The position numbers and the translations under genes are program-made. Of a stretch of 23,696 nucleotides of DNA, positions 3,302 through 23,607 are shown piece by piece. The notes below the pieces were generated by a model that was not told the origin of the DNA, ran no database searches, and saw only the letters and a program-made list of their open reading frames with translations. The first letter of the stretch is position 1. Every line of letters starts with the position of its first letter. Origin of the DNA: Octopus sinensis (Eukaryota); assembly GCF_006345805.1 (NCBI RefSeq), contig NW_021836558.1:1-23696 (forward strand), read 5' to 3'.

Positions 3302-3912
3302 TTCTGTGTTTTTTTCTCTCTGTGTATCTTTTGTTTGAAGAGCGTAGGCTCGAAACGTTAAAGACTTGTTTTATTTAATTTTCCTGAGCGCCATACTACT
3401 ACAATTGTTTGTTTGTTCCCACCTGCCTTCGTCTTTTGTCTATTTTCATAAAGCTTCCCGTTATATATTATGCGCTCACGTGGTCTCATTTCATCTATAT
3501 TCTACCAATACCACTATCAACACTTACCTCTACCTTGGATTTTCTTTACCTCTTGATACTTACCATTGGCTGCACCTCTCTTTCGCGGATCAAAGTGACT
3601 TTGTTATTGATGTGAATCCTTAAAAAATATACCACGACGTCTACACATTTCTAACCTTGAACTTTCAACCTTGAACTTGTTCGCATAAACTGTCCGTTTG
3701 TTGTATTTTTTTTTCATCATTATTACTGCACGCATTTTTTTCTCTCCTTCTGTGTTTTTTTTTCTCTCTGTGTATCTTTCTGTTGAAGAGCGTAGGCTCG
3801 AAACGTTAAAGACTTGTTATTTATATTTCCTGAGCGCCATACTAATACAATTGTTTGTTTGTTTCCAACCTGCTTCGTCTTTTGTCTATTTTCATAAAGC
3901 TTCCCGTTATAT
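3302..3912 (+). mobile_element. Non-autonomous PLE-like/retrozyme-like unit: two ~165 bp direct repeats (3302-3468, 3748-3912), each with a hammerhead-like motif
   Basis: Direct repeats 448 bp apart, each containing GAAGAGCGTAGGCTCGAAACGTTAAAGA. Related copies on the minus strand at 15446-15650 and 17643-17818. Confidence 0.65.
3775..3812 (+). ncRNA. Minimal type I hammerhead ribozyme-like motif, A6U core variant
   Basis: P1 UCUUU/AAAGA; core CUGUUGA+A; P2 GAGC-guag-GCUC; GAAA; palindromic P3 ACGU; GUU cleavage triplet (3805-3807). The upstream copy at 3327-3364 has a damaged core (UGUUUGAA). Confidence 0.6.
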
Positions 3913-3925
3913 ATATATATATATA

Positions 3926-4089
3926 TATACTCAAAATAAGCAACAAGAATGACTCCGGTATTTTTGGTACGATCGTTTCGTACTAATCATTTTAACACTG
4001 GTTGTAATACTTACATTTAATAAAATGATGTAGTACGAAACGATCGTACCAAATTACCGGAGTCATTCTTGTTGCTTATTTTGATTATA
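3926..4089. repeat. Fold-back inverted repeat (~65 bp arms, ~26 bp spacer)
   Basis: 3931-3994 is the near-perfect reverse complement of 4021-4084. Confidence 0.9.
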
Positions 4090-4187
4090 GTCACCCCACG
4101 GATTTTATGGATAACACCATACAGATTCTTGTGCATCTAAATTAAGTACCATATTCATTTGAATCTAAATTTTTGCTGAACTTATAT

Positions 4188-4248
<61 letters not shown>

Positions 4249-4281
4249 TATATTCTTTTTCTTTATTATATATTCTTATTC

Positions 4282-4435
4282 CTTTTACTTGTTTCAGTCA
4301 TTTTGACTGTGGCTATGCTGGAGCACCGCCTTTTAATCGAGCAAATCGACCCCACAACTATTCTTTGAAAGCCTAGTACTTATTCTATCGGTCTCTTTTG
4401 CCGAACCGCTAAGTTACGGGGACGTAAACACACCA
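4282..4435 (-). mobile_element. SINE family A, 3' fragment
   Basis: Matches the tail half of 1736-2148. Confidence 0.85.
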
Positions 4436-4953
4436 AGTGTGTTTTATGAAACTTCGGGAGAGATGTACAGCAAGTTGTACTTTCAGATATCCTTTCTTAA
4501 TGCAGGCGGACAAGCACTCTTCAGGGATAAAGCATCGCTCCTGAACTAATCACTGGAGTATTTCTTGACTTACCCCGACACCATCTATGTGGCCTGTTAC
4601 TCAGCAGCTCATCGTAACCAACAAGAGCCGGAGAAAATAGACATTACACGTGAATCATTCATTGAAGAGATTGTTGGAAGAGATTGTGGAAAGATAACAG
4701 GAGCCAATAGAATCCTACCAGAGATTCAGAAGAGTGAGAGCCCAGCGTTACACACCGAACATTACTTTTTAATCAGCTTCAATGAACAAAGTAATCTACC
4801 AAGGGACCTCTATGATAAGTTATCGTCACCGTCTAAAATTACTAACAGGGGAGGAAAATGTGCTGCCTGTTGTAGTAAAACCCTAGCAACAAATATGTGA
4901 TTTTTTTTAAGGATAAATAGGAAACTAGTGTTCGTCCTCTTCCCAGGGGCATA

Positions 4954-5259
4954 TCTTTATATATAAAAGTGAAGTTGTGTGAGTGTCTGTCTCCTACGAT
5001 TTAGATTCCTAACTACTCCCACATTTTGCGGTGCAGTTTAACCAAAACCGGGTATCTTATAGTCGTGATTCATATCGAGCCCTTCTGGGTATTAGCGCGC
5101 GTCTACGATGAGTCTACGATTTTTAAAAAATTACCATCTTTTTTTCCCATTTTTAATGCATTTTTTTTTTTTGCTAATATATAAGGGAAGTAACTCTCTG
5201 AAAATGCTTATATAGTTATTTCCCTTACAAACCCGAGCAACGCCGGGCGATACTGCTAG
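4954..5259 (+). mobile_element. Non-autonomous Helitron, copy 2
   Basis: A|TC start (4954), hairpin at 5232-5247, CTAG|T end (5256-5259). Reverse complement of 325-720 lacking one internal repeat unit. Confidence 0.85.
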
Positions 5260-5281
5260 TGCAAGATATAATGAGAAGACT

Positions 5282-5561
5282 ATTGCAGCGTGGAAGGTTT
5301 TTGTAAGCCATTTAAAAAACACACAAAAGTCGTTCGATTCACTTCAACATTTAAGTTTAATTTGTCAAAATATTTTCGTCGCTATAAGACTGCGACCTGT
5401 TCACTGACAAAAATCCGTGCTGCATCTTAAATGTTGAAGTGAATCGAACGGCTTTTGTGTGTTTCTTAAATGGCTTACAAACACCTTCCACGCTGCAATT
5501 GTTTTCGTTCCAGAAACACGATCTCAGATCAAATCACTTGCTATGCAAGTACATCTCCGTA
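5282..5561. mobile_element. Fold-back PLE-like mini-element with 12 bp TSD
   Basis: Inverted arms 5282-5355 and 5426-5499, flanked by direct repeat AATGAGAAGACT (5270-5281, 5562-5573). A further fragment lies at 21294-21319. Confidence 0.75.
5361..5411 (-). ncRNA. Minimal type I hammerhead ribozyme-like motif, G3-C8 core variant
   Basis: Minus strand: P1 UUUGUCA/UGACAAA (7 bp); core GUGAACA+G; P2 GUCGC/GCGAC with 9-nt loop; GAAA; palindromic P3 AAUAUU; UUU triplet. Confidence 0.65.
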
Positions 5562-6362
5562 AATGAGAAGACTGAAATATATTAATTAGAATGACATTGT
5601 AAGGTGCAATTGTTGTGGTTTAGGTATGGCTTTTCTTTTTATTGTTCTGGGTGTTCGATAGTGTGTTTCTTGCTTTGTTGACAGAAGATGACAAATATAA
5701 ATTAATTAGAATTTCCCCCGATATTTTCCCAGTTTCTGCTTTCTTGCCTGTTTGTTTTACTTTTTATCGCAACAAACCTATATAATTAACAATATCGGTA
5801 AAAATCCTGGAATTGGTATAATTGCGTTTCTATCAGGTTCTTAAAACAGTCGTGTAACAAAAGATATACTCATTAACACCAGTAATCTAATAAAGCGAGT
5901 TATTCATAACAAAAACTAATGGCTTAATTGATATTTTCACAAAGGAAACATGAACAGTAACCTTGTTACTACACGTGCCATCGAAAGAACTCCTACGTGG
6001 TTTCTGCTAAAACAACCATTAAATATCTCTCAAACCATACTCTACTGCCTTACAAGTGGAAAGACAATGATAAACATGAAAATCTTTATTACTGAAACAA
6101 CTTAGACGATAATTCAACTCAGATCATAACTGGCCTGGGACAACATTAGCAGTGTACCTACGCAATGTCATAACTAAAACTCATTTGAGTCGGAAGGAAT
6201 CGATTTTCTTACTGCAAAATTCTCGATATGAATCTCTACATACACCAATCAGTAAAATTTCATGTTTCATAGAACAACATGTGGAAATAAACATGTAGAA
6301 ACGCTTCAACAATGTTGTTTCATCAATGGTTAAAGATAAAATAGATGAAACACAGATGTTAA

Positions 6363-6621
6363 AAATAAAAATAAATGCGCCCGTTTAAAGCCTAGCCAGG
6401 TTCATGGGCCCGGTTTCCCGATTTCTATGGCGTATGTGTTCCCCAGCTGGACGGGACGCCAGTCCATCGCAGCGTTACTCTTTTTGCCAGCTGAGTGGAC
6501 TGGAGCAACGTGAAATGAAGTGTTTTGCTCAAGAACACAACGCGTCGCCCGGTCCAGGAATCGAAACCACAATCTTACGATCATGATGCTGACACCCTAA
6601 CCACTAAGCCATGTGCCTCCA
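6363..6621 (-). mobile_element. tRNA-derived SINE family B (CORE-like central domain)
   Basis: Reverse complement of 7267-7532, with A and B boxes. Probable TSD GAAACACAGATG/GAAACCCAGATG (6347-6358, 6623-6634). The CORE resemblance is from memory of TTGRGCAARNCACTT. Confidence 0.85.
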
Positions 6622-6678
6622 AGAAACCCAGATGATACCATTTTAATTTGTATCATGATAATATTACAGATTTATATA

Positions 6679-6830
6679 CAGTAAATCCTCGAGTATAGTC
6701 CGCCCTTGAGTATAATACGCAGGGGATTTTTAGGGGGCTGTACCTCTAAAAACCTAAACCTTGTGTATAATACGCACTCCTTCTCTAACTTGAGTCAAGG
6801 AGGTCTATATACCAAGTATAAATACGCATG
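6679..6830 (+). mobile_element. Probable pogo/Tigger-type DNA transposon terminus
   Basis: TA|CAGTAAATCCTCGAGTATA start and four copies of a GTATAATACGCA-like subterminal motif. No partner end found. Confidence 0.4.
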
Positions 6831-7266
6831 CGCAGAAGGCAGTGTGACAAAAATAAAGATATGTTATGGTGAAAGTGCGGATAACTTTTGACTTCCCCTC
6901 GTATATATCCAAAATGCAAGAATATAAAAGAAGGCGACAGACTCTAAACTTTGTAAGACATTTAGTAGGGCGCTGTACTGCCTTTCGATTTATTTTGTTC
7001 TTCCAATGTTATAAATGTAAATTATGAGGACAATATTGCTACAAACGTGAGTCATAAAACATACGGCTTAACAGCGCACATTACTGTTGTACAAATCTAC
7101 TAAAATTGTAGCGTATAATTATATATGTGCTAAAGTTTTGAATCGTTATTAACACACCAGAAAACATGATTGTAAAATAATTGACATGCTTATTAGGTCA
7201 CAACCTTATTTACATATGTTCTGCCTGTGAATTACTATGGAATACAGATGGCCTATAATAGTAATT

Positions 7267-7532
7267 GTGGAGGCGCGTAGCTTAGTGGTTAAATTGTCAG
7301 CATCATGATCGTAAGATTGTGGTTTCAATTCCTGGACCGGGCGATGTGTTGTGTTCTTGAGCAAAACACTTCATTTCACGTTGCTCCAGTCCACTCAGCT
7401 GGCAAAAATGTGTAACCCTGCGATGGACTGGCGTCCCGTCCAGCTGGGGAACACATACGCCATTGAAACCGGGAAACCGGGCCCATGAGCCTGGCTAGGC
7501 TTTTAAAAGGGCGCATTTATTTATTATTATTT
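7267..7532 (+). mobile_element. tRNA-derived SINE family B
   Basis: A box TAGCTTAGTGG, B box GGTTTCAATTCC, (TTA)/(TTTA) tail, and TSD TAGTAATT (7259-7266, 7533-7540). Confidence 0.88.
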
Positions 7533-7566
7533 TAGTAATTAGTAAATCAGACGTAAGTATAAAATA

Positions 7567-7940
7567 TGGCTGTGAGACAAGAAGTTTGCTTCCCAACCAC
7601 ATGGTTCCAGGCTCGGTCTCACTGCGTGGCACCTTGGACAAGTGCCTTCTACTATAGCCTCGGGCCGCCCAAAGCCTTGTGAGTGCATTTGGCAGACGGA
7701 GACTGAAAGAAGCCCGATGTGTGTGTGTGCGTGCGTGCGCATGTTTGTCTGTGTGTTTGTCCCCCACCACCGCTTGACAACCGGTGTTAGTGTGTTTACG
7801 TTCCCGTAACCTAGCGTTTCGGCAAAAGGCCCGATAGAATAAGTAACCGGCTTTAAAAAAAAAACAAGTACTAGAGTCGATTTGTTCAACTGAAACGCTT
7901 CAAGACGGTGCTCCAGCATGGCTGCTGTCTAATGACTACA
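7567..7940 (+). mobile_element. SINE family A, diverged copy
   Basis: Collinear with 13343-13731, with more substitutions. Confidence 0.85.
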
Positions 7941-8119
7941 TCAGTTGGAAGGTAAAAGATGACTTCGGATAGGTTACTCTAAGGTGATAACGATGTAGTG
8001 ATAGAGGCTTGCAAATGAAACTAATAAAGAGGAGATTAATAAAGGTGAGACAAGTAATAATATAGATAAAACTTACTTGATGCGTGACGTTCGATCATAT
8101 GATATAAATAATATATAAA

Positions 8120-8516
8120 TACTCTTTACTCTTTTACTTGTTTCAGTCATTTGACTGCGGCCATGCTGGAGCACCGCCTTTAGTCGAGCAAATCGACCCC
8201 GGGACTTATTCTTTGTAAGCCCAGTACTTATTCTATCGGTCTCTTTTGCCGAACCGCTAAGTAACGGGGACGTAAACACACCAGCATCGGTTGTCAAGCA
8301 ATGCTAGGGGGACAAACACAGACACACAAACACACACATACATATACATATATACGACAGGCTTCTTTCAGTTTCCGTCTACCAAATCCACTCACAAGGC
8401 TTTGGTCGGCCCGAGGCTATAGTAGAAGACACTTGCCCAAGGTGCCACGCAGTGGGACTGAACCCGGAACCATGCGGTTGGTAAACAAGCTACTTACCAC
8501 ACAGCCACTCCTGCGC
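8120..8516 (-). mobile_element. SINE family A, full length
   Basis: Near-identical to 1736-2148. Confidence 0.92.
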
Positions 8517-8815
8517 TATGAGACCGAGCATATATACATACATATATGTACATACCTAAATATAAATGTATATATATATATATACATGCATATATGGATA
8601 CAGGACATCAAAAAAAAGTTTGAACACAATGAGAAACGAAAACATAAAAACAAAAACATAGAAACGAATTTTTTTTTTTCGAACATCGAAAAAAACAAAC
8701 AGAGAAACGAGACATGCAACATAAAGAATATTCCCCTATATTAATTAATAATATAGATTCGTTAAGAAGTAATTACCTGCTATTATTAATAAACGAATTA
8801 TATTACTGTCATAAT

Positions 8816-9020
8816 ATTGGTTTCAAATTTTGACACAGGGCTAGCAATTTTAAGGGAGGAGCAAGTCGGTTGCATCGACCCCAATATTAAACTGGTACTT
8901 ATTTTATCGACTCAGAAGGGATTGAAAAGCAAAGTCGACCTCAGGCGGGATTTGAACTCAGAATGTTTAAATGCTGCTAAGCATTTTCCCCGGCGTGCGA
9001 ACGATTCTGCCTGCTCGCCG
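8816..9020 (-). mobile_element. tRNA-derived SINE family C
   Basis: Diverged reverse complement of 21989-22200. B box GAGTTCAAATCC; ends TTTGAAACCAAT. Confidence 0.75.
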
Positions 9021-9141
9021 CTTTATTAATGAATGTCATGATATATAAATTACAAATCTTGTTAATTAGATTATAAATTGAAAAAACAATTCAAATCAAT
9101 TTTAAAATTCTAATTTTAGAATTCTTCTGAATGTGTGCAGT

Positions 9142-9179
9142 GTCACGTGGCCGGAAGTGAACGTGTCTGAATATATAAA
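9142..9179 (+). promoter_or_regulatory. Candidate Pol II promoter: E-box GTCACGTG, ETS site CCGGAAGT, TATA box TATATAAA
   Basis: Three consensus motifs within 38 bp of non-repeat sequence (9142-9149, 9151-9158, 9172-9179), with a splice-donor-like AAG|GTAAAT at 9299/9300. Confidence 0.5.
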
Positions 9180-9304
9180 TCACAGCCACCTACTTATTTT
9201 AATATAGCTGTATTATTTCTGCCTTTACCTTCAATTCCTGATCGTTTTATTCGGCCTACGAAATCGATATATTTGTCTGCTAGGCGTTTTCTCGAGAAGG
9301 TAAA

Positions 9305-9374
9305 TACGTCACTGTACGTCACTGTACGTCACTGTACGTCACTGTACGTCACTTTACGTCATGTTACGTCAACT
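9305..9374 (+). repeat. 10-bp minisatellite, 7 x TACGTCA(ctg), CRE/ATF-like sites
   Basis: TACGTCA starts at 9305, 9315, 9325, 9335, 9345, 9355 and 9365. Confidence 0.9.
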
Positions 9375-9691
9375 TTAAGTTACACTGCGTTAACTGATCG
9401 TGGGCTGGAGTACATTATGAATGATGTGCACTCAGATACGTTCGTGACTAGATGTTATTGTGTTATATAAAGTTATTCAGAGAGACAAAGACAGAAAGAA
9501 AGAGTGATTCAGGTAGGCATGACCGAATAATACATTTTGCAATTATCGGATTGGAAGTTCGATCCCTATCCATGGATTATTGGACAAGTAATTTTTACCA
9601 TAGGCTCAGTATGACTCGAGTATTTTCGTCTGTGAAATCAGGTCGAAGAAAACGTGTGGCAGTTCCACAGGTGCGCAGTATTGGCATCATT

Positions 9692-10216
9692 ACAGTTCTT
9701 TATTTAAGAGATGAGGAATTATGTACATTATTTACATTATTTACATTGACATTTGACGAGCATATGGCGTAGTGGTTAAGAGCGCGGGCTACTAACACCC
9801 AGATTCCGAGATCGATTTCAGGCAGTGATCTGAATAATAATAATAATTATAATAATATCGCTGTGAAAACAACATCCATCCATGAATTTATTTATTTATT
9901 AATTTTTAAATACATATTTTATCTGTGAATTTGCGTGTGTAAGCTGGGAATGCATACAATGAGCTTCTTTGCCCTAGGTGTATGGAAAACACTCGGCGAG
10001 AAACGGAAGAAAATTTGAAGAAAGAAGGAAAAAACATAATAATAATAATAATAATAACAACAACAACAACAACATCGAAAAATACCTTAGGAATGAGAAC
10101 CCAAGTTCGAAATTTCCCCATGACACCTGATGAAGATTGGAGAGTATATCAGCCGAAACGTGTTAACAACAAACAAGATGAGGACAAATATCCGTCAAAT
10201 GTAAATAATGTAAATA
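9692..10216 (+). mobile_element. Composite element: inverted tail copy + tRNA-like head + (AAT)n + hammerhead-containing tail
   Basis: A box TGGCGTAGTGG (9765-9775) and degenerate B box (~9809-9819). 9729-9758 is the reverse complement of 10193-10216 with a 6-bp indel. CTGATGA...GAAAC lies at 10127-10159. The 5' boundary is approximate. Confidence 0.55.
10122..10164 (+). ncRNA. Hammerhead ribozyme-like motif, canonical C3-G8 core, probably decayed
   Basis: P1 GACAC/GUGUU; CUGAUGA+A; imperfect P2 GAUUG/CAGCC; GAAAC. No NUH triplet is left between GAAAC and P1 in this copy. Confidence 0.5.
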
Positions 10217-10619
10217 GAGTATTAGCATCGTTCAAATGTCAGCCTTTACCATCGCTATATCTTTATGATTCTACCTAAAGGTATACGTGTCTGTGGAATA
10301 CTCGACCACTTTCACTACAATTCATGCAGTAGGCAATCCAGTTGATCGAACAAGTTGAATACTCGTCGCCGAAAGGAATGGCGAACCGTTACGTGTGTAC
10401 GTGAGTACATATGTAATAGATACATCTTTATCGATATCATCTACACACGCATATATATGTATATACACACACAGAATAGTGTTGATTGTGATTTCGAAGT
10501 TTCGGCCAGCGAACCCATAATCAGAATGTAATGCATTTAGGTTCGTCTTTGGATTTATAGAGTCTCTGCTAAGTTAAAGTTTTCAAAGGATATGCTGAGT
10601 TCTGTTGGTTCATCCGTTG

Positions 10620-10671
<52 letters not shown>

Positions 10672-10759
10672 ACATGTAAATATATAGATCAAAACAGTTT
10701 GATTCAAATTATATATATATAGCATAGTATCTATCTATATATATATACATACATACATA

Positions 10760-10814
<55 letters not shown>

Positions 10815-11268
10815 GTATAAAAGATGGGCTACAGCAAATATTTTGCTCAATACCACAGATCTGCTTGTCAGTTGTTTGACCTTAACCAGTTGAGCATGTC
10901 CCTTAGGGCTGACGATATGTGCATCTCTGATCACGAGCAGAAGTATGGGGGAGCATCATAGCCATGTGTGAGAAGGATTCTTTGGGGTTTGAATTATTCA
11001 CCTCTGGAACATGGGTGTTTCGTTCAACATCCTTAAACAACCCTTATTCAGGGACCTTTTGAGCCGGATGGGGTTACTCGATCTGAAGAAAATTCTAACT
11101 GGGCTCCACTGCAAGGTCAGTGCTGTTATCTTGATATGAGATCACCATGTCGCGCACATATGGTTGGATGCATGTGCCTGGTGTACCCTTATCAGACGGG
11201 TAGTCATGCTGGGTATACTGGGCTTCGTATATTTTACCCCAGTGTCACTTTGCTCTGCTCGCTCACTC
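10815..11268 (+). mobile_element. Probable interspersed element embedded in an (AAT)n array
   Basis: ~450 bp GC-richer block bounded on both sides by (AAT)n (10768-10814, 11269-11352), with a near-terminal hairpin ACTGGG...CCCAGT. Confidence 0.4.
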
Positions 11269-11491
11269 AATAATAATAATAATATAATAATAATAATAGT
11301 AATAATAATAATAATAATAATATAATCATAATATAATAATAATAATAATATAGGAGTAAACTCCAAACTTACAGGGAAAAATTCAATTTAGATTAAAATC
11401 AAATTTCACAATATATAAATCAAAAGAAAAAATCTTATGATATGTTTAGTCTGTCATTGTTTGAATTACATAATAGAGGTTTTATCTAATT

Positions 11492-11525
<34 letters not shown>

Positions 11526-11864
11526 ATAGATATATATATAATATATATATATATTATATATATTATATATATACACATATATATATAGCATAATACTCAG
11601 ACAGAATCTAAAGATGTGTGTGTGTGTGTGTGAATGTGTGTAAATCAGATAAGCTGAAATAAATTTAAACATTACAAAGCCTAATTGTGGGTTAAATAGG
11701 AATGTAAACACACTTTTTCTGTTATCGCGGTGCAAGAAAAGTAAGGATGGAGTATCATGACAGACCGTTCCACAGTTAGTTAACCGCTCCTGAGAGATGT
11801 ACCCGGTTTCAGTCGACAATCAATCGTACGACTCAGCTGTTACTGCAAAAGTATACATTCGTAT

Positions 11865-12167
11865 GTGAGAGAGCGTGTGTGTGTGTGTGTGTGTGTGAGG
11901 AGAGAGAGAGAGAGAGAGAGAGCGTGTGTGTGTGTGTTTGTGTGTCTATGTGTGTCAGTATATACACGCGCGTAGAAAAAAGTGCGAAGGAGATAAACAG
12001 ACGTATGGATGGATTGGTGGATGCATGTATGGATTGATGTATGGATTGATGGATGGATGGATGGATGGACGAACAGCCTGAGAGACAGACATACAGACGG
12101 ACAGACTGACGCACTGACAGACAGATAGATAGATAAAATGATAGATTGATTGATTGATTGATTGATT

Positions 12168-12205
<38 letters not shown>

Positions 12206-12259
12206 TAGATAGATAGATAGATAGATAGATGATGGATGGATGGATGGATGGATGGATAA

Positions 12260-12332
<73 letters not shown>

Positions 12333-12341
12333 TAGACAGTC

Positions 12342-12418
<77 letters not shown>

Positions 12419-12453
12419 GGCAGACAGACAGACAGACAGACAGATAGACAGTC

Positions 12454-12530
<77 letters not shown>
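11865..12530. repeat. Compound microsatellite: (TG)n, (AG)n, (GATG)n, (GATT)n, (GACA)n, (GATA)n
   Basis: Directly visible. Confidence 0.97.
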
Positions 12531-12531
<1 letters not shown>

Positions 12532-13162
12532 ATTTTACTGGAATATAGTGAAGATGTTTTCATATTTCACATGGGAGAATTTTTTTTTTTAATCTTAGAT
12601 CGGAGACGTTGATATCAAACAGAATATCGTGATTGGTATCAATGAAATCTATGATATCAACCTCACCAAAACAATGATACGTGCACATGCGCACGCCCGC
12701 TCACTCACGCTCACATTAACACATTCAATCACGCGTACATGTACTCAAGTTTGTGCATTCGTATAAACCCCATCACACACATGCACATGGAAATTGCATA
12801 AAATGTCTATCATACGTATGTGTATATATGTGCGCGTGTGTATATCTTTATGTGTGTGTGTAGGTGTACGTGTGTGATCTTATGTGTTTGATACAACGTC
12901 GTCTCTTACATGATCATGATGTCGTGTTATGATAGTAATTTAGCTAATCGATAATAATACACGCAGTGTAGGCTCTCACATAAGGTATGAGTTTTAAAAA
13001 CAATGATTGAATAAGATTATCCTAGTAATTAGCAGACAAAATCTGCATCTTGGGATGATCACACATTTAAAAAAAGAAGTAAACAAGGAGATAATCTGAA
13101 TGCGATTATCCAACCAAAATAATTGAAAAATAAGGTAACTGGTATTTCTCTCCACTCGTAAT

Positions 13163-13308
13163 GTTACTCTTTTAATCTGTTACTCGTTTCAGTCATTTGA
13201 CAGAGGCCATGCTGGAGCACCACCTTTAGTCGAACAAATCGACCCCAGGACTTATTCTTTGTAAGCCTTAGTGCTTATTCTATCGGTCTCCTTTTGCCAA
13301 ACGCTAAA
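13163..13308 (-). mobile_element. SINE family A, 3' fragment
   Basis: Matches the SINE A tail and is inverted relative to the adjacent copy. Confidence 0.85.
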
Positions 13309-13342
13309 TGACTTTTATAAATATATTGTTTTATATGACATA

Positions 13343-13731
13343 GGCGCAGGAGTGGCTGTGTGGTAAGTAGCTAGCTAACCAACCTCATGGTTCCGGGTTC
13401 AGTCCCACTGCGTGGCATCTTGGGCAAGTGTCTTCTGCTATAGCCCCGGGCCGACCAATGCCTTGTGAGTGGATTTGGTAGACGGAAACTGAAAGAAGCC
13501 TGTCGTATATATGTATATATATGTATATGTGTGTGTGTTTGTGTGTCTATGTTTGTCCCCCTAGCATTGCTTGACAACCGATGCTGGTGTGTTTACGTCC
13601 CCGTCCCTTAGCGGTTCGGCAAAAAGACACCGATAGAATAAGTACTAGGCTTACAAATTCCGGGGTCGATTTGCTCGACTAAAGGCGGTGCTCCAGCATG
13701 GCCGCAGTCAAATGACTGAAACAAGTAAAAG
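13343..13731 (+). mobile_element. SINE family A, full length
   Basis: Complete head (GGCGCAGGAGTGGCTGTGTGG) to tail (GACTGAAACAAGTAAAAG), followed by an A-rich run. Confidence 0.92.
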
Positions 13732-13845
13732 AAAAAAAAAGAAAAAAATGTCCTCTTTATTCCAGGTCTTCTTCGGACAAACAGGGAATGTCATTGATGA
13801 GGGCTTGGGTGACTTCGACAAACGGCTTGTTTACCAGCGACGTTC

Positions 13846-14240
13846 TTCCGGGTTCAGTCGCACCTTGGGCAAGTGTTTTCTACTATAGCCTCGCGCTGAC
13901 CAAGGCTTTGTGAGTGGATTTGATAGATGTAAACTGAAAGAAACACGTCGTATATATATATCTGTACATGTATATGTATGTGTGTGTCCGTGAGTGTTTT
14001 TGTGTGTATGTGTGTGCGCGCGCGCGTGTCTCTGTGTGTGTATGTGTGTGTGTGTTTATCCTCCACCATGCTTGACAGCTGGTGTTGTGCTTATATCCTC
14101 GTAACCTAGCTGTTCGACAAAAGAGAGGTAGAGAGAATAAGTAACAGGCTAAAAAATATGTACTGGGAGTCGATTCATTCGACTACAAATTCCTTAAGGT
14201 GGATCCCCTCCAATTATTGCAACAAGTAAAAGATAAAAGA
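13846..14240 (+). mobile_element. SINE family A, diverged, 5'-truncated
   Basis: Collinear with the preceding copy from the B box onward. Confidence 0.8.
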
Positions 14241-14372
14241 TCAAACAATGAGATTATTCAAACAAAATTAATTGACAAAAATTCACTTTATCGGTGTTTA
14301 AAATATTAAAAGAAATGCAAACAAGAAAGATAACTCCGATTAAACAAGTTGATCGATTTGTGTGGACCATAA

Positions 14373-14779
14373 GAAAGGCTGAAGACGATCGACCTTTATT
14401 CTCTAGAAAAACGACGACGCCGTGGTGATCTCATTCTTGCTCACAACATCATAAGCGGAAAGTGTAACCTCTCGAAAGAGCTGTTCTTCACTCCTGCTCC
14501 AGAGCGTCGGCTGCGGGGTCACTCCGAAAAGCTCCATCTGCGATGATTTCATCTCAATCGAAGGAGAGGGGCTTTCTCCGTCCGGGTTGCGGATCCGTGG
14601 AATAAGCTGCCGGACGAGATAGTGAAGATGCCGACGACCGCTCGGTTCAAAGTCTCTCTTGACCAGAAATGGCCTGAACTCTTTGCATGAACACCCCTCC
14701 CTGTACATAACTCCATGTCCCCCTACATGGCCTTGCTTTTTGCTTTTTGAGCCAAAAAATTAACTTAACTTAACTTAAC
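14373..14779 (+). mobile_element. CR1-type LINE 3' end (ORF2 C-terminus pseudogene plus tail)
   Basis: Frame from 14373: ERLKTIDLYSLEKRRRRGDLILAHNII...RLRGHSEKL(HLR*)...RRGAFSVRVADPWNKLPDEIV...RFKVSLD. One in-frame TGA (14544), natural stop at 14688-14690, and a (TTAAC)n tail at 14760-14779. Confidence 0.9.
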
Positions 14780-15164
14780 AATTCAAATTTCAGTGAAAAT
14801 GTACTTTAAAACTATGTTTTTAAACTTAAATGAAAGCTATGTAAAGACAAAAATTAAACAAACTATTTAATGTTGATTTCCTCCCAGAGTAAGCGGAAAC
14901 GATCTGGGATCACTTTAGGTGGTACAGTTGCTGCCGAAGATAGATTTGAAGGGCGAAGGAAGTCGTTGTAATTATTTTAATATAAATCTGTTGAAATGTG
15001 ATTTCATCATATTTTATATTTCTTTGAATGGACAATGGCGTGAGTAAGGAGACAAAATGGATCTTAACTTAATTTGTTGTTGTTGCTGTTGTTGTTTTAA
15101 TACCAGGGATGTTTGCAGAGTGACCCCAATAGATATATTACTTTTTTTTTTTTTTTACTTATTT

Positions 15165-15748
15165 ACCTTTTACTTGTTTCAGTCATTAGAGTACGGCCAT
15201 GCTGGGGCACCCCCTTGAAGAATTTTTAGCCGAATGTATCGACATCCACACGCAGTACTTTTTTTTTCGAAGACTGGTGCTTATTCTGTCGGTCTGTTTT
15301 GCCGAACCGCTATGTTACGGGGGCGTAAACACACCAACACCAGTTGTCGAGCGACGATGGGGAACAAATACAGACACAAAGACACACACACATAAATATA
15401 CATACATATATACATACATATATACATACATATGTACAAAGAAAATATGTAGGGGAGAATTCACAAAAAAATCAAAAGACGAAGACAGGTGGTGTAGACA
15501 ACAAACAGGTGTATCAGTATAACGCTCGGGAAGTGAAAAAGTCTTTAACGTTTCGAGCCTATGCTCTTCCACAGAAAGGAACACAGAAAGAAACAAGGAG
15601 AGAAAATAAAGAATGTGTAGTGGCTAGCGATCTATCATGGCGAATGCCGGGGGCTTCTTTCAGTTTCCGTCTGCCAAATCCACTCACACAGCTTTGGTCG
15701 GTCCGAGGCTCTAATAGAAGACATTTGGCCAAGGTGCCACGCAGTGAG
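15165..15748 (-). mobile_element. SINE family A interrupted by a nested insertion
   Basis: The tail half (15165-15430) and head half (15652-15748) flank a foreign segment. Confidence 0.8.
15446..15650 (-). mobile_element. PLE-like mini-element with A6U hammerhead motif (15543-15578)
   Basis: Minus strand CUUU-CUGUGGAA-GAGC-auag-GCUC-GAAA-CGUU-AAAG. Near-identical to 17643-17818 and related to 3302-3912. Confidence 0.65.
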
Positions 15749-16285
15749 TCTGAAATTATAGCAATTTTCTACATGTTTAAAAGCATTTCTCGTTTCATAT
15801 GCTTTTAACTCGTATCTATGAAGTTGAGTTACGTTTCTTGCTGAGGGAAAGGACATATACCACATTTCTTTGGTTAAGAAACCAAATTCTTTAGGTTCAA
15901 ATGCCTCATATGGAAATTACGATGTTAAAATTGTTTAAATGAAAAGATTTAATGACAAACTTCTAAATTTGTTTCCTCTAAGGATGTTTAAAATCTAAAT
16001 GCAACAACCAAAGGAAATATCTTTAATAAAATCAATCGATTGAAACATTTGGATATTGTAGACAATGATGCGACAAGATTTCTGCAGAAAAGCTGGTGCC
16101 CTCTGCCAAGGATTTAGTCAGAGTGGGGAGAGCAGTGTCTATAACACTATTCAGAAAATTGGTGTGAAGAAGAGAGAGAGAATACCCTACTTGCAATTAG
16201 TGTACTCTGCTAGAACCCAAAAGCTAAGTGGTATACATACACTTACACACACACACACCACACACATATATATATATATATATAT

Positions 16286-16925
16286 ATGTGTGTGCTTGCT
16301 ATGGAGTTAACACCGAAGATATCACTCACATTATAAGCAGTTGTCCGAAAATGTTATCACAGTATTGTTGTGTGGACGCCCCCAGACGATGAAGTAGACT
16401 AGCCCAATACGTAGTTATAGAGGGGGAAGTCTAGACGTCGAGGAGAGCAGAGTTGAGTAGAAGGCATCCAAACGTGCGACATAACAGGTATAATGTACCG
16501 ATGAGACATGATGTAGCATTATGAAATCCGTCTGAAGGACAACCCCGAGGCCAAAGAAATAAGAACCCACAGTATGGTGGAAGTCATAGCCACTCATAAT
16601 AAAAAAGAAGTGCTGATGGAATGTCCGAGGGAAAACCTCAATAAACTGTAAAGAAGAGAAACTGTGCACAGCTGTGGAAATCAGTGAACAAGAAAATACC
16701 TGCGCTGAACTATTGAGGAATCTACAGTTACTCTATCCAGATTATGAGTTCAGTTTATACCAGTAATTATTGGGGCACTGGAATATGTAACACACTGCCT
16801 AAATGCCAATTTTGAGGAATTAGGTTTCTCAAAATCAGAAATGAGAAAGCTGATTCGAAGACTACAGACCCAAGTCAACACTGGAACTGTCAAAATTAGT
16901 ATAAAACTTTCCAGTTTATCATTTA
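16286..16925 (+). pseudogene. Decayed R4/Dong-type non-LTR retrotransposon C-terminus (CCHC knuckle plus restriction-like endonuclease)
   Basis: Peptides TEDITHIISSCPKM, PMRHDVA, KEEKLCTAVEIS, ELLRNLQLLYPDY, IPVIIGALEYV and LQTQVNTGTVKI occur in order, with frameshifts. Confidence 0.75.
16366..16486. mobile_element. 121 bp solo-LTR-like insertion
   Basis: TGTTGTGTGG...CGACATAACA imperfect terminal inverted repeats (TG...CA) and 5-bp TSD AGTAT/GGTAT. Removing it restores the host reading frame. Confidence 0.6.
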
Positions 16926-17219
16926 ATTATATATGAGCATGTCTATACATGCAACTATGTACATGAGAATACATACATAAAGCAAAACATACAAATCTGC
17001 ACACATATATACACACATACGTACATTCATACATACATACATACATACATACATACATACATACATACATACATACATACATACATACATACATACATAC
17101 ATACAAAAATACACGATGTTGAAATGAAAATGAAAGGGCCTCAGATCTAGGTTAGAAAGCGGTTCTTTCTCTATTAACAAGAAATCTTGAAACAAAACTG
17201 AATGACAACACACACACAC

Positions 17220-17258
<39 letters not shown>

Positions 17259-17260
17259 TC

Positions 17261-17314
<54 letters not shown>

Positions 17315-17341
17315 GAATATTACTGTGAAGCATTGTGTAGA

Positions 17342-17617
17342 ATATTGTATAAAAGATCGTAGGTAAGGCCAAAACAATGCGAAGTGAATGCAAGGTAAAT
17401 CACTAGAAAACAAATATGTGAATTAATGTAGACTTACCTTGTATTCAATATTTTGGGGTAATGGCTCTATTTTCTCAATTTCTTGAAAATGGGGTCATAA
17501 CCCCGAAATATTGAATACAAGGTAAGTCTACCTTAATTCATGTATTTGTTTTCTTGTGATTTACCTTGCATCTACTTCGCATTGTTTCGGCCTTACCCAC
17601 GATCTTTTATACAATAT
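17342..17617. repeat. Long fold-back palindrome (~133 bp arms, 10 bp spacer), PLE-like
   Basis: 17342-17474 is the reverse complement of 17485-17617 with scattered mismatches. Confidence 0.92.
17480..17515 (+). ncRNA. Minimal hammerhead-like motif, U3-A8 core variant
   Basis: P1 UUC/GAA (short, next to the inversion point); core UUGAAAA+U; P2 GGGGU-caua-ACCCC; GAAA; palindromic P3 AUAU; AUU triplet. Confidence 0.5.
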
Positions 17618-17642
17618 ACATATATATATACACACACACATA

Positions 17643-17818
17643 TATGTAGGGGAAAATTCACAAAAAAACAAAAGACGAAGACAGGTGGTGCAGACAACAA
17701 ACAGATGTATTAGTTTAACGCTCGGGAAGTGAAAAAGTTTTTAACGTTTCGAGCCTACGCTCTTCCACAGAAATAAACAAGGAGAAAAAATAAAGAATGT
17801 GTAGTGGCTAGCGATCTA
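17643..17818 (-). mobile_element. PLE-like mini-element with A6U hammerhead motif (17740-17773)
   Basis: Second copy of 15446-15650; core CUGUGGAA, P2 GAGC/GCUC, GAAACGUU. Confidence 0.65.
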
Positions 17819-19922: not shown

Positions 19923-20400
19923 TAACGTTCACGGCGATAGTTTCATAACCTGTCCTACTTATGCACCAACGATATATTAATTGAAGAGTTTCCGCTTGTG
20001 AAGTATTTTATAACTCAATCGTTCATTAAGTCTTACATATTTGATGAGACGTCTCGGAGAGTTATTCACCCAATATTTCGCTTAGTTAAACAGCTTTTAC
20101 AAATCCAGTGAATCGATTTACTTTTTTTCTCTCACTTAAATCATGGCAGTTCTTGCAGTTTTCATCTTTTAAAATAAGACTGTTTGCAGAAATCTGCGAT
20201 TCCTGCATCTTCCATTTGGATTGTTACTCGATTGCTCCACATTCTGCTTATTTACCAAATCCTATTGATAACTGATGAACGATGGCGAAACAATCGCCAA
20301 TTGAGTTGTTATAACTAAACCTGGAATTGTCTTCGAAATGTCAACATGAAAATTCTTAAGGTTTGTCCCAACAGTATCTGAAATTTAGTTATACACGCAT

Positions 20401-20451
<51 letters not shown>

Positions 20452-20488
20452 GTCTTTTTGAATAGACTGTCCAAGATCGACTCCCAGA

Positions 20489-20823
20489 ATGGCTCTTCTT
20501 TTGAAACGTCGCTCAAATTTGGATTCTCCACTGACAATTAAGATACCAAAAATAGAAACCTGGACAACTGGGAACTTCTCGCCAATTTCGTTAAGTTCTT
20601 TCCGAAGTTTAGATTCTTCGATGAATTCTAGTTTATCGATAGCTTCCAACGATTTTCTCTCACGGAGCAGCTCTTGTGATTCTATCATTTCCCATGACGT
20701 CCAATTAAAGCCAGCACTTCGGAATATGGGAACGGTGGGTGACATGCTAAACACCGAACCGAAACCATCAAAGAAAAGAGTCACTCTACAAGATTCACTG
20801 CAGAAAAAATCTAAAGTTCGGCG
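20489..20823 (+). CDS. Probable first coding exon of an unidentified host gene (Ser-rich N-terminus)
   Basis: 111 open codons in non-repeat sequence, acceptor-like TCTTTTTGAATAG| (20465) upstream of the ATG, and donor CG|GTAAGA (20823/20824) overlapping the apparent stop. No family recognised. Confidence 0.55.
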
Positions 20824-21354
20824 GTAAGAACTCCTTTTATTCTTTCTTTTATATAAACTACATCTTAATACTTAAGCATGGGTAAATGTCTTTTGTTTTG
20901 TTTGGTCTGGAGGACGAGCTTTCCCCATGGCCTTCACAGACTCACCAAGATTAGACAGGCTGATGCTGTTAACTGATGCAAATCGACAAATGCTGGAAAA
21001 ACACGTACATGGTAAAAATTCCAGAAGGTTCATATTTTGGAGAGAAAGGAAGTGAGACTAGTGCCTCTTTTTGTGATAATTTAATTTTTTCTGTTTATCT
21101 GAAGTTGATGTATTTATCATTGTTTACAGCAAAATACAATGAAAGAATTGAAACCAGAAAGAAAGCTAAAACCACACACAGTTATCATATCGTGTTTACT
21201 TGACTTACCTGAGCGGCCAGGTAGCTAATTCGTTAATTGTAAACCTTATCTGCAGAATGTAATGCCATTAGATAACTGTAAAAATATAATTTTAAACACC
21301 TTCCACGCTGCAATTGTTTATAATTTTTAAGTTTTTCATAAAATTTCGCGACGT

Positions 21355-23484: not shown

Positions 23485-23607
23485 CTGATGAGGATCTCAT
23501 CATCATCATCATCATGATTATGATGCAAAAATTAACATCAGATTACCTTGAATGTCATTCCTTCGATAAATAAAATAGCAGTAAAATACTGTGGGAGATT
23601 TTTGTCT

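Follow-up and report, generated by a model that had tools for sequence, protein, structure and literature searches.

The window, the whole 23.7-kb contig NW_021836558.1 of Octopus sinensis, carries minimal hammerhead ribozyme motifs of four repeat families (A to D), three of which are the 3′ ends of Penelope-like retroelements. It was searched with a minimal type I hammerhead descriptor: a P1 helix of at least 3 bp, the core N-U-G-N-N-N-A, an optional extra base, a P2 helix of at least 4 bp, GAAA, a palindrome starting from A15.1 and then H, with positions 3, 6, 7 and 8 left free. Five matches and no others were obtained, against a mean of 0.017 in 60 local dinucleotide shuffles, and these are the five intact motifs of the original prediction, whose list of cores and shared layout are thereby confirmed. 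Each has a P1 of 3-7 bp, one extra nucleotide after A9, a P2 opened by a G-C pair (G10.1-C11.1), GAAA, a palindromic P3 (ACGU, AUAU or AAUAUU) and an NUH triplet with U17; all five are Watson-Crick at 3-8. Palindromes and triplets go together as ACGU/GUU, AUAU/AUU and AAUAUU/UUU. A covariance-model search of the window against Rfam returned no hammerhead among 110 matches with E values of up to 10.

Family A is represented first by the remnant of a Penelope-like element at 3305..3907 (+), bounded by (TA)n and likely internally deleted, which consists of a 5′ pseudo-long terminal repeat (pseudo-LTR), a body of about 260 nt and a 3′ pseudo-LTR. It was recognised by its match to the element at genomic locus L318, with 93.5% identity over 432 nt between window positions 3305-3726 and the 5′ end of that element. 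The remnant contains a hammerhead copy at 3327..3364 (+) with a broken core, UGUUUGA at 3332-3338; this is a sixth copy, beyond the cores listed in the original prediction, and the stretch singled out there begins with it. Its 3′ pseudo-LTR carries an intact motif at 3775..3812 (+; CUGUUGA at 3780, hence U6), with a predicted cut after 3807 (GUU). Two further intact family A motifs lie on the minus strand, at 15543..15578 (CUGUGGA at 15574, predicted cut after 15547) and 17740..17773 (CUGUGGA at 17770, predicted cut after 17743), both with U6 and G7. The family B insertion (5281..5562) combines a minus-strand hammerhead-bearing 3′ end with an inverted 3′-end copy (5426-5562) and a tail of about 60 nt; its motif, at 5361..5411 (-), has the core GUGAACA (5404), hence G3-C8, the palindrome AAUAUU and a predicted cut after 5368 (UUU). 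Family C forms two inverted 3′-end copies with 133-nt arms (17342..17617), and its motif at 17480..17515 (+) has UUGAAAA (17483), hence U3-A8, the palindrome AUAU and a predicted cut after 17512 (AUU). The family D element (9713..10212, +) is composed of a short inverted 3′ copy, a head resembling the A and B boxes of RNA polymerase III (Pol III) promoters (from about 9759), an (AAT)n tract split by the 3′ end of another retroelement, and a hammerhead-bearing 3′ end. Its motif (10122..10164, +) keeps the canonical CUGAUGA at 10127 and, as first noted, is damaged, having lost 3 nt at the GUU cleavage site and part of the integrity of P2.

Families A, B and C are 5′-truncated 3′ ends of autonomous-type Penelope-like elements and lie downstream of reverse transcriptase (RT)/GIY-YIG frames. 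The idea that they are separate mini-elements has therefore to be given up, as they extend upstream into these frames, and the link to Penelope-like elements proposed alongside it is borne out. The genome searched comprises 2.72 Gb in 13,516 contigs; a first look gave 252 candidates for A, 2,444 for B, 1,105 for C and 2,781 for D, of which 40 were scored and 30 loci kept per family. For family A, the hammerheads at L262 and L266 are preceded by RT frames (675 and 623 aa; RVT_1, E about 2e-7) that end roughly 0.5-0.8 kb upstream, the RVT_1 matches being followed by a YIG-type C-terminus. At L265/L318 two hammerheads 4.35 kb apart flank the open reading frame (ORF) region, and copies of the family share up to 1.5 kb or more of upstream sequence. 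Comparison of the family A ORF with solved structures gave no match. The family B ORF was reached by stepwise walking upstream from the hammerhead end: L311 has a 363-aa frame with GIY-YIG (E 6e-5, above the Pfam cut-off) 0.9 kb upstream of the hammerhead, and the frame upstream of it is similar to the RT of another element (E 5.5e-10). Another supposed upstream extension of family B was discarded, its pattern matching one locus only. Upstream of family C there are RT-thumb/GIY-YIG fragments (L267, L268 and L270), the GIY-YIG match being below the Pfam cut-off (E 0.009). The A, B and C proteins share just 21-28% identity over short stretches, and the three families are therefore distinct lineages; on a reading of motifs, those of A and B have a CX2-5CxxC-type linker. 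Copies have a fixed 3′ end and a variable 5′ end, partial tandems and inverted 5′ copies occur, tails are one-sided and (TA)n microsatellites serve as targets, which matches the insertion anatomy described for endonuclease-bearing Penelope-like elements (PMC8557442), and the hammerheads occur solo, inverted or as pseudo-LTR pairs. Another, young Penelope-like family (L271, L273-L275, L278) has intact RT/GIY-YIG frames of 780-781 aa, overlapped in some members by an upstream frame that reaches 479 aa; related loci of this lineage have a downstream UUGAUAA hammerhead that lacks the extra nucleotide.

Across the genome, the core of each family is fixed. Families were counted by exact patterns with the core positions free, and core composition was taken from 100 listed matches each. 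Family A (CUGUNGA), for which P2 and GAAA served as the anchor, has 11,398 exact matches, with U6 in 100, C3 in 99 and G8 in 98 of the 100 listed (hand tally); in the same 100, position 7 is U in 57, A in 16, C in 14 and G in 13, and position 17 is A in 55, U in 44, C in 1 and never G. Family B has 2,649 exact matches, of which 94 of the 100 listed have GUGAACA, the other six being single changes at position 3 or 8, none compensatory. In four sequencing runs, used as assembled contigs that carry no information on ends, strand or expression, the seven core positions of family B differ by at most 5%, and loop and CpG positions vary. In the clusters of sampled sequence described below, UUGAAAA is found in 22 of 23 copies of family C and CUGAUGA in 5 of 6 copies of family D. 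Family D has 3,873 matches at the cleavage region, its copy number being at least this; palindrome and triplet are intact in most, and the 3-nt deletion of the window copy recurs in 7 of 100 listed matches. Beside these counts, at L243, L247, L249, L251 and L260 a family B subfamily and an adjacent repeat form a composite that has been copied as a whole, and a short fragment of a family B 3′ end lies at window positions 21299-21314.

Complementarity at 3-8 extends beyond the window. An arbitrary sample of 80 stretches of 10 kb, taken at round coordinates from 30 large contigs (800 kb), gave 25 matches to the strict descriptor, 23 of them Watson-Crick at 3-8; six shuffles together gave 9 matches, 2 of them paired. 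The 23 paired motifs, in which inverted pairs count twice, comprise 4 CUGANGA cores, 5 with U6, 1 with C6, 9 with U3-A8 and 4 with G3-C8, one of the latter doubtful. Non-CUGANGA cores are the majority in this sample (19/23, or about 19/27 if the 3 or 4 canonical motifs with a long loop, which fall outside the strict rule, are added), in agreement with the expectation that CUGANGA searches would miss many motifs. When none of the seven core positions was constrained, 32 matches were obtained, of which 20 have U4, G5 and A9, and 19 of these 20 pair at 3-8; in ten shuffles the corresponding figures are 2 of 133 and none. A set of 177 distinct matches, drawn from 1.64 Mb of sequence that was in part deliberately chosen, fell into 28 clusters. 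The majority core is paired at 3-8 in 23 of the 28 and in all 12 multi-copy clusters, counting as paired one two-copy cluster that is a tie (permutation p=1.4e-4, a value that overstates independence because the families are related). The multi-copy clusters divide into 6 with U-A, 5 with C-G and 1 with G-C, and no A3-U8 family is found among the 28. In cluster 7 the members with C3-G8 are homologous to those with U3-A8, and here the swap is direct. Thus the covariation at 3-8 that had been proposed holds between families and not within them: the pair is fixed in each family and differs from one to another.

The most unusual core change is the replacement of A6 by U in family A, which is not a 3-8 effect. 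Reading the U6 core in an alternative register with an inserted U was ruled out on sequence, since the 3-8 pair would break. A broader A-type pattern has 18,867 genome matches, and the 100 of these that were listed divide by the length of loop II: it has 4 nt in 78, always together with U6, and 3 nt in 22, always together with A6 (hand tally). The A6 group (CUGACGA) is homologous to the U6 group, with about 68-69% identity over 180-190 nt at two loci, and the difference is one lineage split rather than repeated co-evolution. U6 is retained in three subfamilies, compared with P2 and GAAA as the anchor, whose 3′ flanks are 16-26% different, including 4-12% decay within clusters. A single sister-group copy has C6 (CUGCAGA, L199:4926, minus strand).

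We consider it probable that several Penelope-like lineages carry these motifs in their 3′ pseudo-LTRs as minimal type I hammerhead folds, each family having its own fixed core (C3-G8, U3-A8, G3-C8, or C3-G8 with U6), and that the folds cleave themselves slowly just after NUH. Architecture, location downstream of RT/GIY-YIG frames in A, B and C, family fixation and cross-family 3-8 complementarity are as described above; self-cleavage is likely, judging from sequence. Measurable cleavage is to be expected with high confidence for U3-A8 motifs and with good confidence for G3-C8 motifs; for U6 motifs, where it would be slower, the balance tips only slightly in its favour. In the mechanism we propose, the cut would follow H17. 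Because P3 is too short within one copy, it would be formed by the palindromes of two copies pairing in a tandem transcript, or else with help from the protein of the element, as in the Anolis Poseidon hammerhead. Any Watson-Crick 3-8 pair could place the 2′-OH at position 8, so that lineages could swap the pair. Read-through transcripts would be trimmed by the cut, and the genomic copies would mostly be 5′-truncated passengers. In favour of such activity, exchanging both positions by design (C3G/G8C) brings back part of the cleavage of the Anolis Penelope hammerhead, which needs its own protein to cleave (PMC11167929), and a natural C6 (A6C) hammerhead, though poorly active in Mg2+, cuts well in Mn2+ (PMC7151607). 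A Schistosoma motif shows no monomer and low dimer cleavage (PMC4209133).

A number of observations weigh against this interpretation, in addition to the relatedness of the families already mentioned. The G3-C8 and U6 cores each rest on one origin. Copies do not begin at the predicted cut (0 of 35 bystander copies for A and 0 of 11 for B), although two family B copies begin 4 nt before it; family C was not used for this footprint, as (TA)n matches swamp it (2 of 75 informative). The palindrome duplexes are predicted to be very weak (-1.7 to +1.6 kcal/mol), and only one of five two-strand minimum-energy folds pairs the palindromes. Monomer folding predictions for the three U6 copies have U4-G5-U6 base-paired to the GAAACG strand in two cases, which is a non-catalytic arrangement. 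In one ribozyme at 0.3 mM Mg2+, the penalty for A6C reaches five orders of magnitude (PMC7151607), and in the Anolis study no read ends at the cut and cleavage is dispensable for insertion in vitro (PMC11167929). No ORF was assigned upstream of the A6 sister family in the 14 loci fetched; one B-like ORF about 1.7 kb upstream of an A6-sister hammerhead (L332) is not assigned to a family. Finally, no Penelope ORF was found upstream of family D in 30 search loci and 6 further loci.

Some of these points suit the view that the U6 lineage, and perhaps the G3-C8 one, descends from a hammerhead that is now dead or nearly so, kept for another job of the pseudo-LTR such as splice acceptor, internal promoter or protein binding site. 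A6 belongs to the standard core, and its replacement by C is strongly impairing in Mg2+ (PMC3088659, PMC7151607); U6 permits a predicted fold that is non-catalytic, and the 5′ ends of copies carry no cleavage footprint. In family A a long pyrimidine tract lies immediately upstream and the 3′ edge of the core has AG dinucleotides, the intron of Drosophila virilis Penelope ends at helix I (PMC4209133), and the Naiad clade thrives without canonical hammerheads (PMC8557442). We nevertheless regard this as unlikely, given that the sites varying among U6 subfamilies are ones at which hammerheads tolerate change (position 7, position 17 except for G, loop II and distal P1), and that C3, U4, G5, G8 and A9 stay; the copies behind this include a BLAST collection made without P2 and GAAA as the anchor. 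Within the reading of the motifs as self-cleaving, a stronger version can be put forward tentatively, in which the U6 lineage would be a working hammerhead without A6, present in more than 11,000 copies, its activity switched to depend on the protein of the element or on a different metal; together with G3-C8, it would leave most hammerheads of this genome, and perhaps of many animals, invisible to the standard core.

It is highly improbable that the repeats are self-standing, retrozyme-like non-autonomous units copied via hammerhead-cleaved circular RNAs instead of truncated Penelope ends. Most copies are indeed short and lack an ORF, and an origin from Penelope pseudo-LTRs has been put forward for animal retrozymes (bioRxiv 10.64898/2026.07.22.740005). 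The retrozyme-like reading is refuted for A, B and C by their linkage to RT/GIY-YIG ORFs, and their constant 3′ ends, 5′ ends of varying position, inverted 5′ copies and tails also speak against it. The hallmark of non-LTR retrozymes, head-to-tail short hammerhead units without an ORF, is absent from these three families, and the window has no head-to-tail hammerhead array. In favour of such units, family D has A and B boxes at its head in 11 of 30 loci, followed by the (AAT)n tract and the canonical hammerhead, and no ORF was found in its 30 and 6 loci. It resembles a non-autonomous element whose head is of Pol III type and whose 3′ end carries a Penelope-type hammerhead. A transfer RNA identity of the head was found by ARAGORN in 0 of 16 loci, and Rfam gave none in two regions. 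The (AAT)n tract is a target of a non-LTR retroelement, whose 3′ end lies at about 9858-10035 of the window. Chance look-alikes in AT-rich repeats, for which one could cite the noise of loose descriptors (12-19 matches per shuffled 800 kb) and the 5 of 28 clusters that are single non-paired matches, have a negligible probability and are refuted by the window shuffles, the strict 800-kb shuffles and the core enrichment that persists with all core positions free, as well as being at odds with a location relative to the ORF that is as published.

Much of this system is known. Metazoan Penelope hammerheads (PMC4209133, Cervera & de la Peña 2014) are alike in their minimal type I fold, short helix I, extra nucleotide between A9 and 10.1, G10.1-C11.1, palindromic 15.2-16.2, NUH often with U17, pseudo-LTR site and mostly solo or inverted occurrence. 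The U3-A8 core, UUGAAAA with GUU included, is published there for Schistosoma and Saccoglossus Penelope-like elements (text and Fig. S3), with about 1,300 matches in S. mansoni and a presence also in S. kowalevskii. They differ in that G3-C8 is absent from the 56 representatives in Fig. S3, all of which have A at position 6, and the extra nucleotide, H in the published consensus, is G in family B. A majority of non-CUGANGA cores, as in the 800-kb sample, is a further difference. Judged by a CUGANGA or published U3-A8 core, families C and D are of known type, and A (U6) and B (G3-C8) are variants. The Anolis Poseidon (PAc) hammerhead shares the location in a Penelope-like pseudo-LTR and some activity as G3-C8, which was engineered there and is natural and family-fixed in octopus family B (PMC11167929); PAc needs its protein to cleave. 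Phage and bacterial hammerheads have natural U3-A8 and A6C (Bcep176) with residual activity, as rare single cases with C at position 6 (PMC3088659, PMC7151607). In contrast, U6 in octopus family A is fixed in one animal retroelement lineage that has a canonical A6 sister.

No natural G3-C8 or U6 family was found in the literature searched, a scope outside which fall most subscription papers, Lünse 2017 and part of the PMC4209133 supplement; nor was an octopus hammerhead survey found, again with most subscription papers outside the scope. What is new is a pair of core variants, G3-C8 and U6, each fixed in a large family that is linked to Penelope-like ORFs, together with the majority of non-CUGANGA cores in the sample. 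Lünse, Weinberg & Breaker 2017 reportedly describe small Penelope-associated hammerheads with a reduced stem III and dimer cleavage.

Hammerhead censuses, and claims that an element lacks a hammerhead, rest on CUGANGA descriptors (e.g. PMC8557442). Applied here, a CUGANGA search would overlook about two thirds of the intact motifs, which by rough extrapolation amounts to tens of thousands in the whole genome. The families also offer natural matched tests of what the Penelope hammerhead does and whether cleavage is needed, by comparing the U6 lineage with its homologous A6 sister, and the natural G3-C8 with the engineered one. Families with canonical cores, a loop II of 40-70 nt and 8-nt palindromes were seen at L117, L262, L276, L291, L195, L173 and L275; these would escape short-loop descriptors too.

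Some minor features of the window remain. An isolated CUGAUGA at 23485 has no hammerhead fold. A heavily decayed frame at 19990-20860 (minus) resembles, by eye, the C-terminus of a Penelope-like protein, and had no tblastn match to the Penelope-like ORFs recovered in this analysis. The decayed coding stretch at 16500-16910 resembles the C-terminus of a non-LTR retroelement in its motifs. At 3926-4090 there is an inverted-repeat remnant with GAAA, the palindrome ACGAUCGU and A, which is likely the 3′ half of another Penelope hammerhead that has lost its core; similar remnants occur in L237 and L202.

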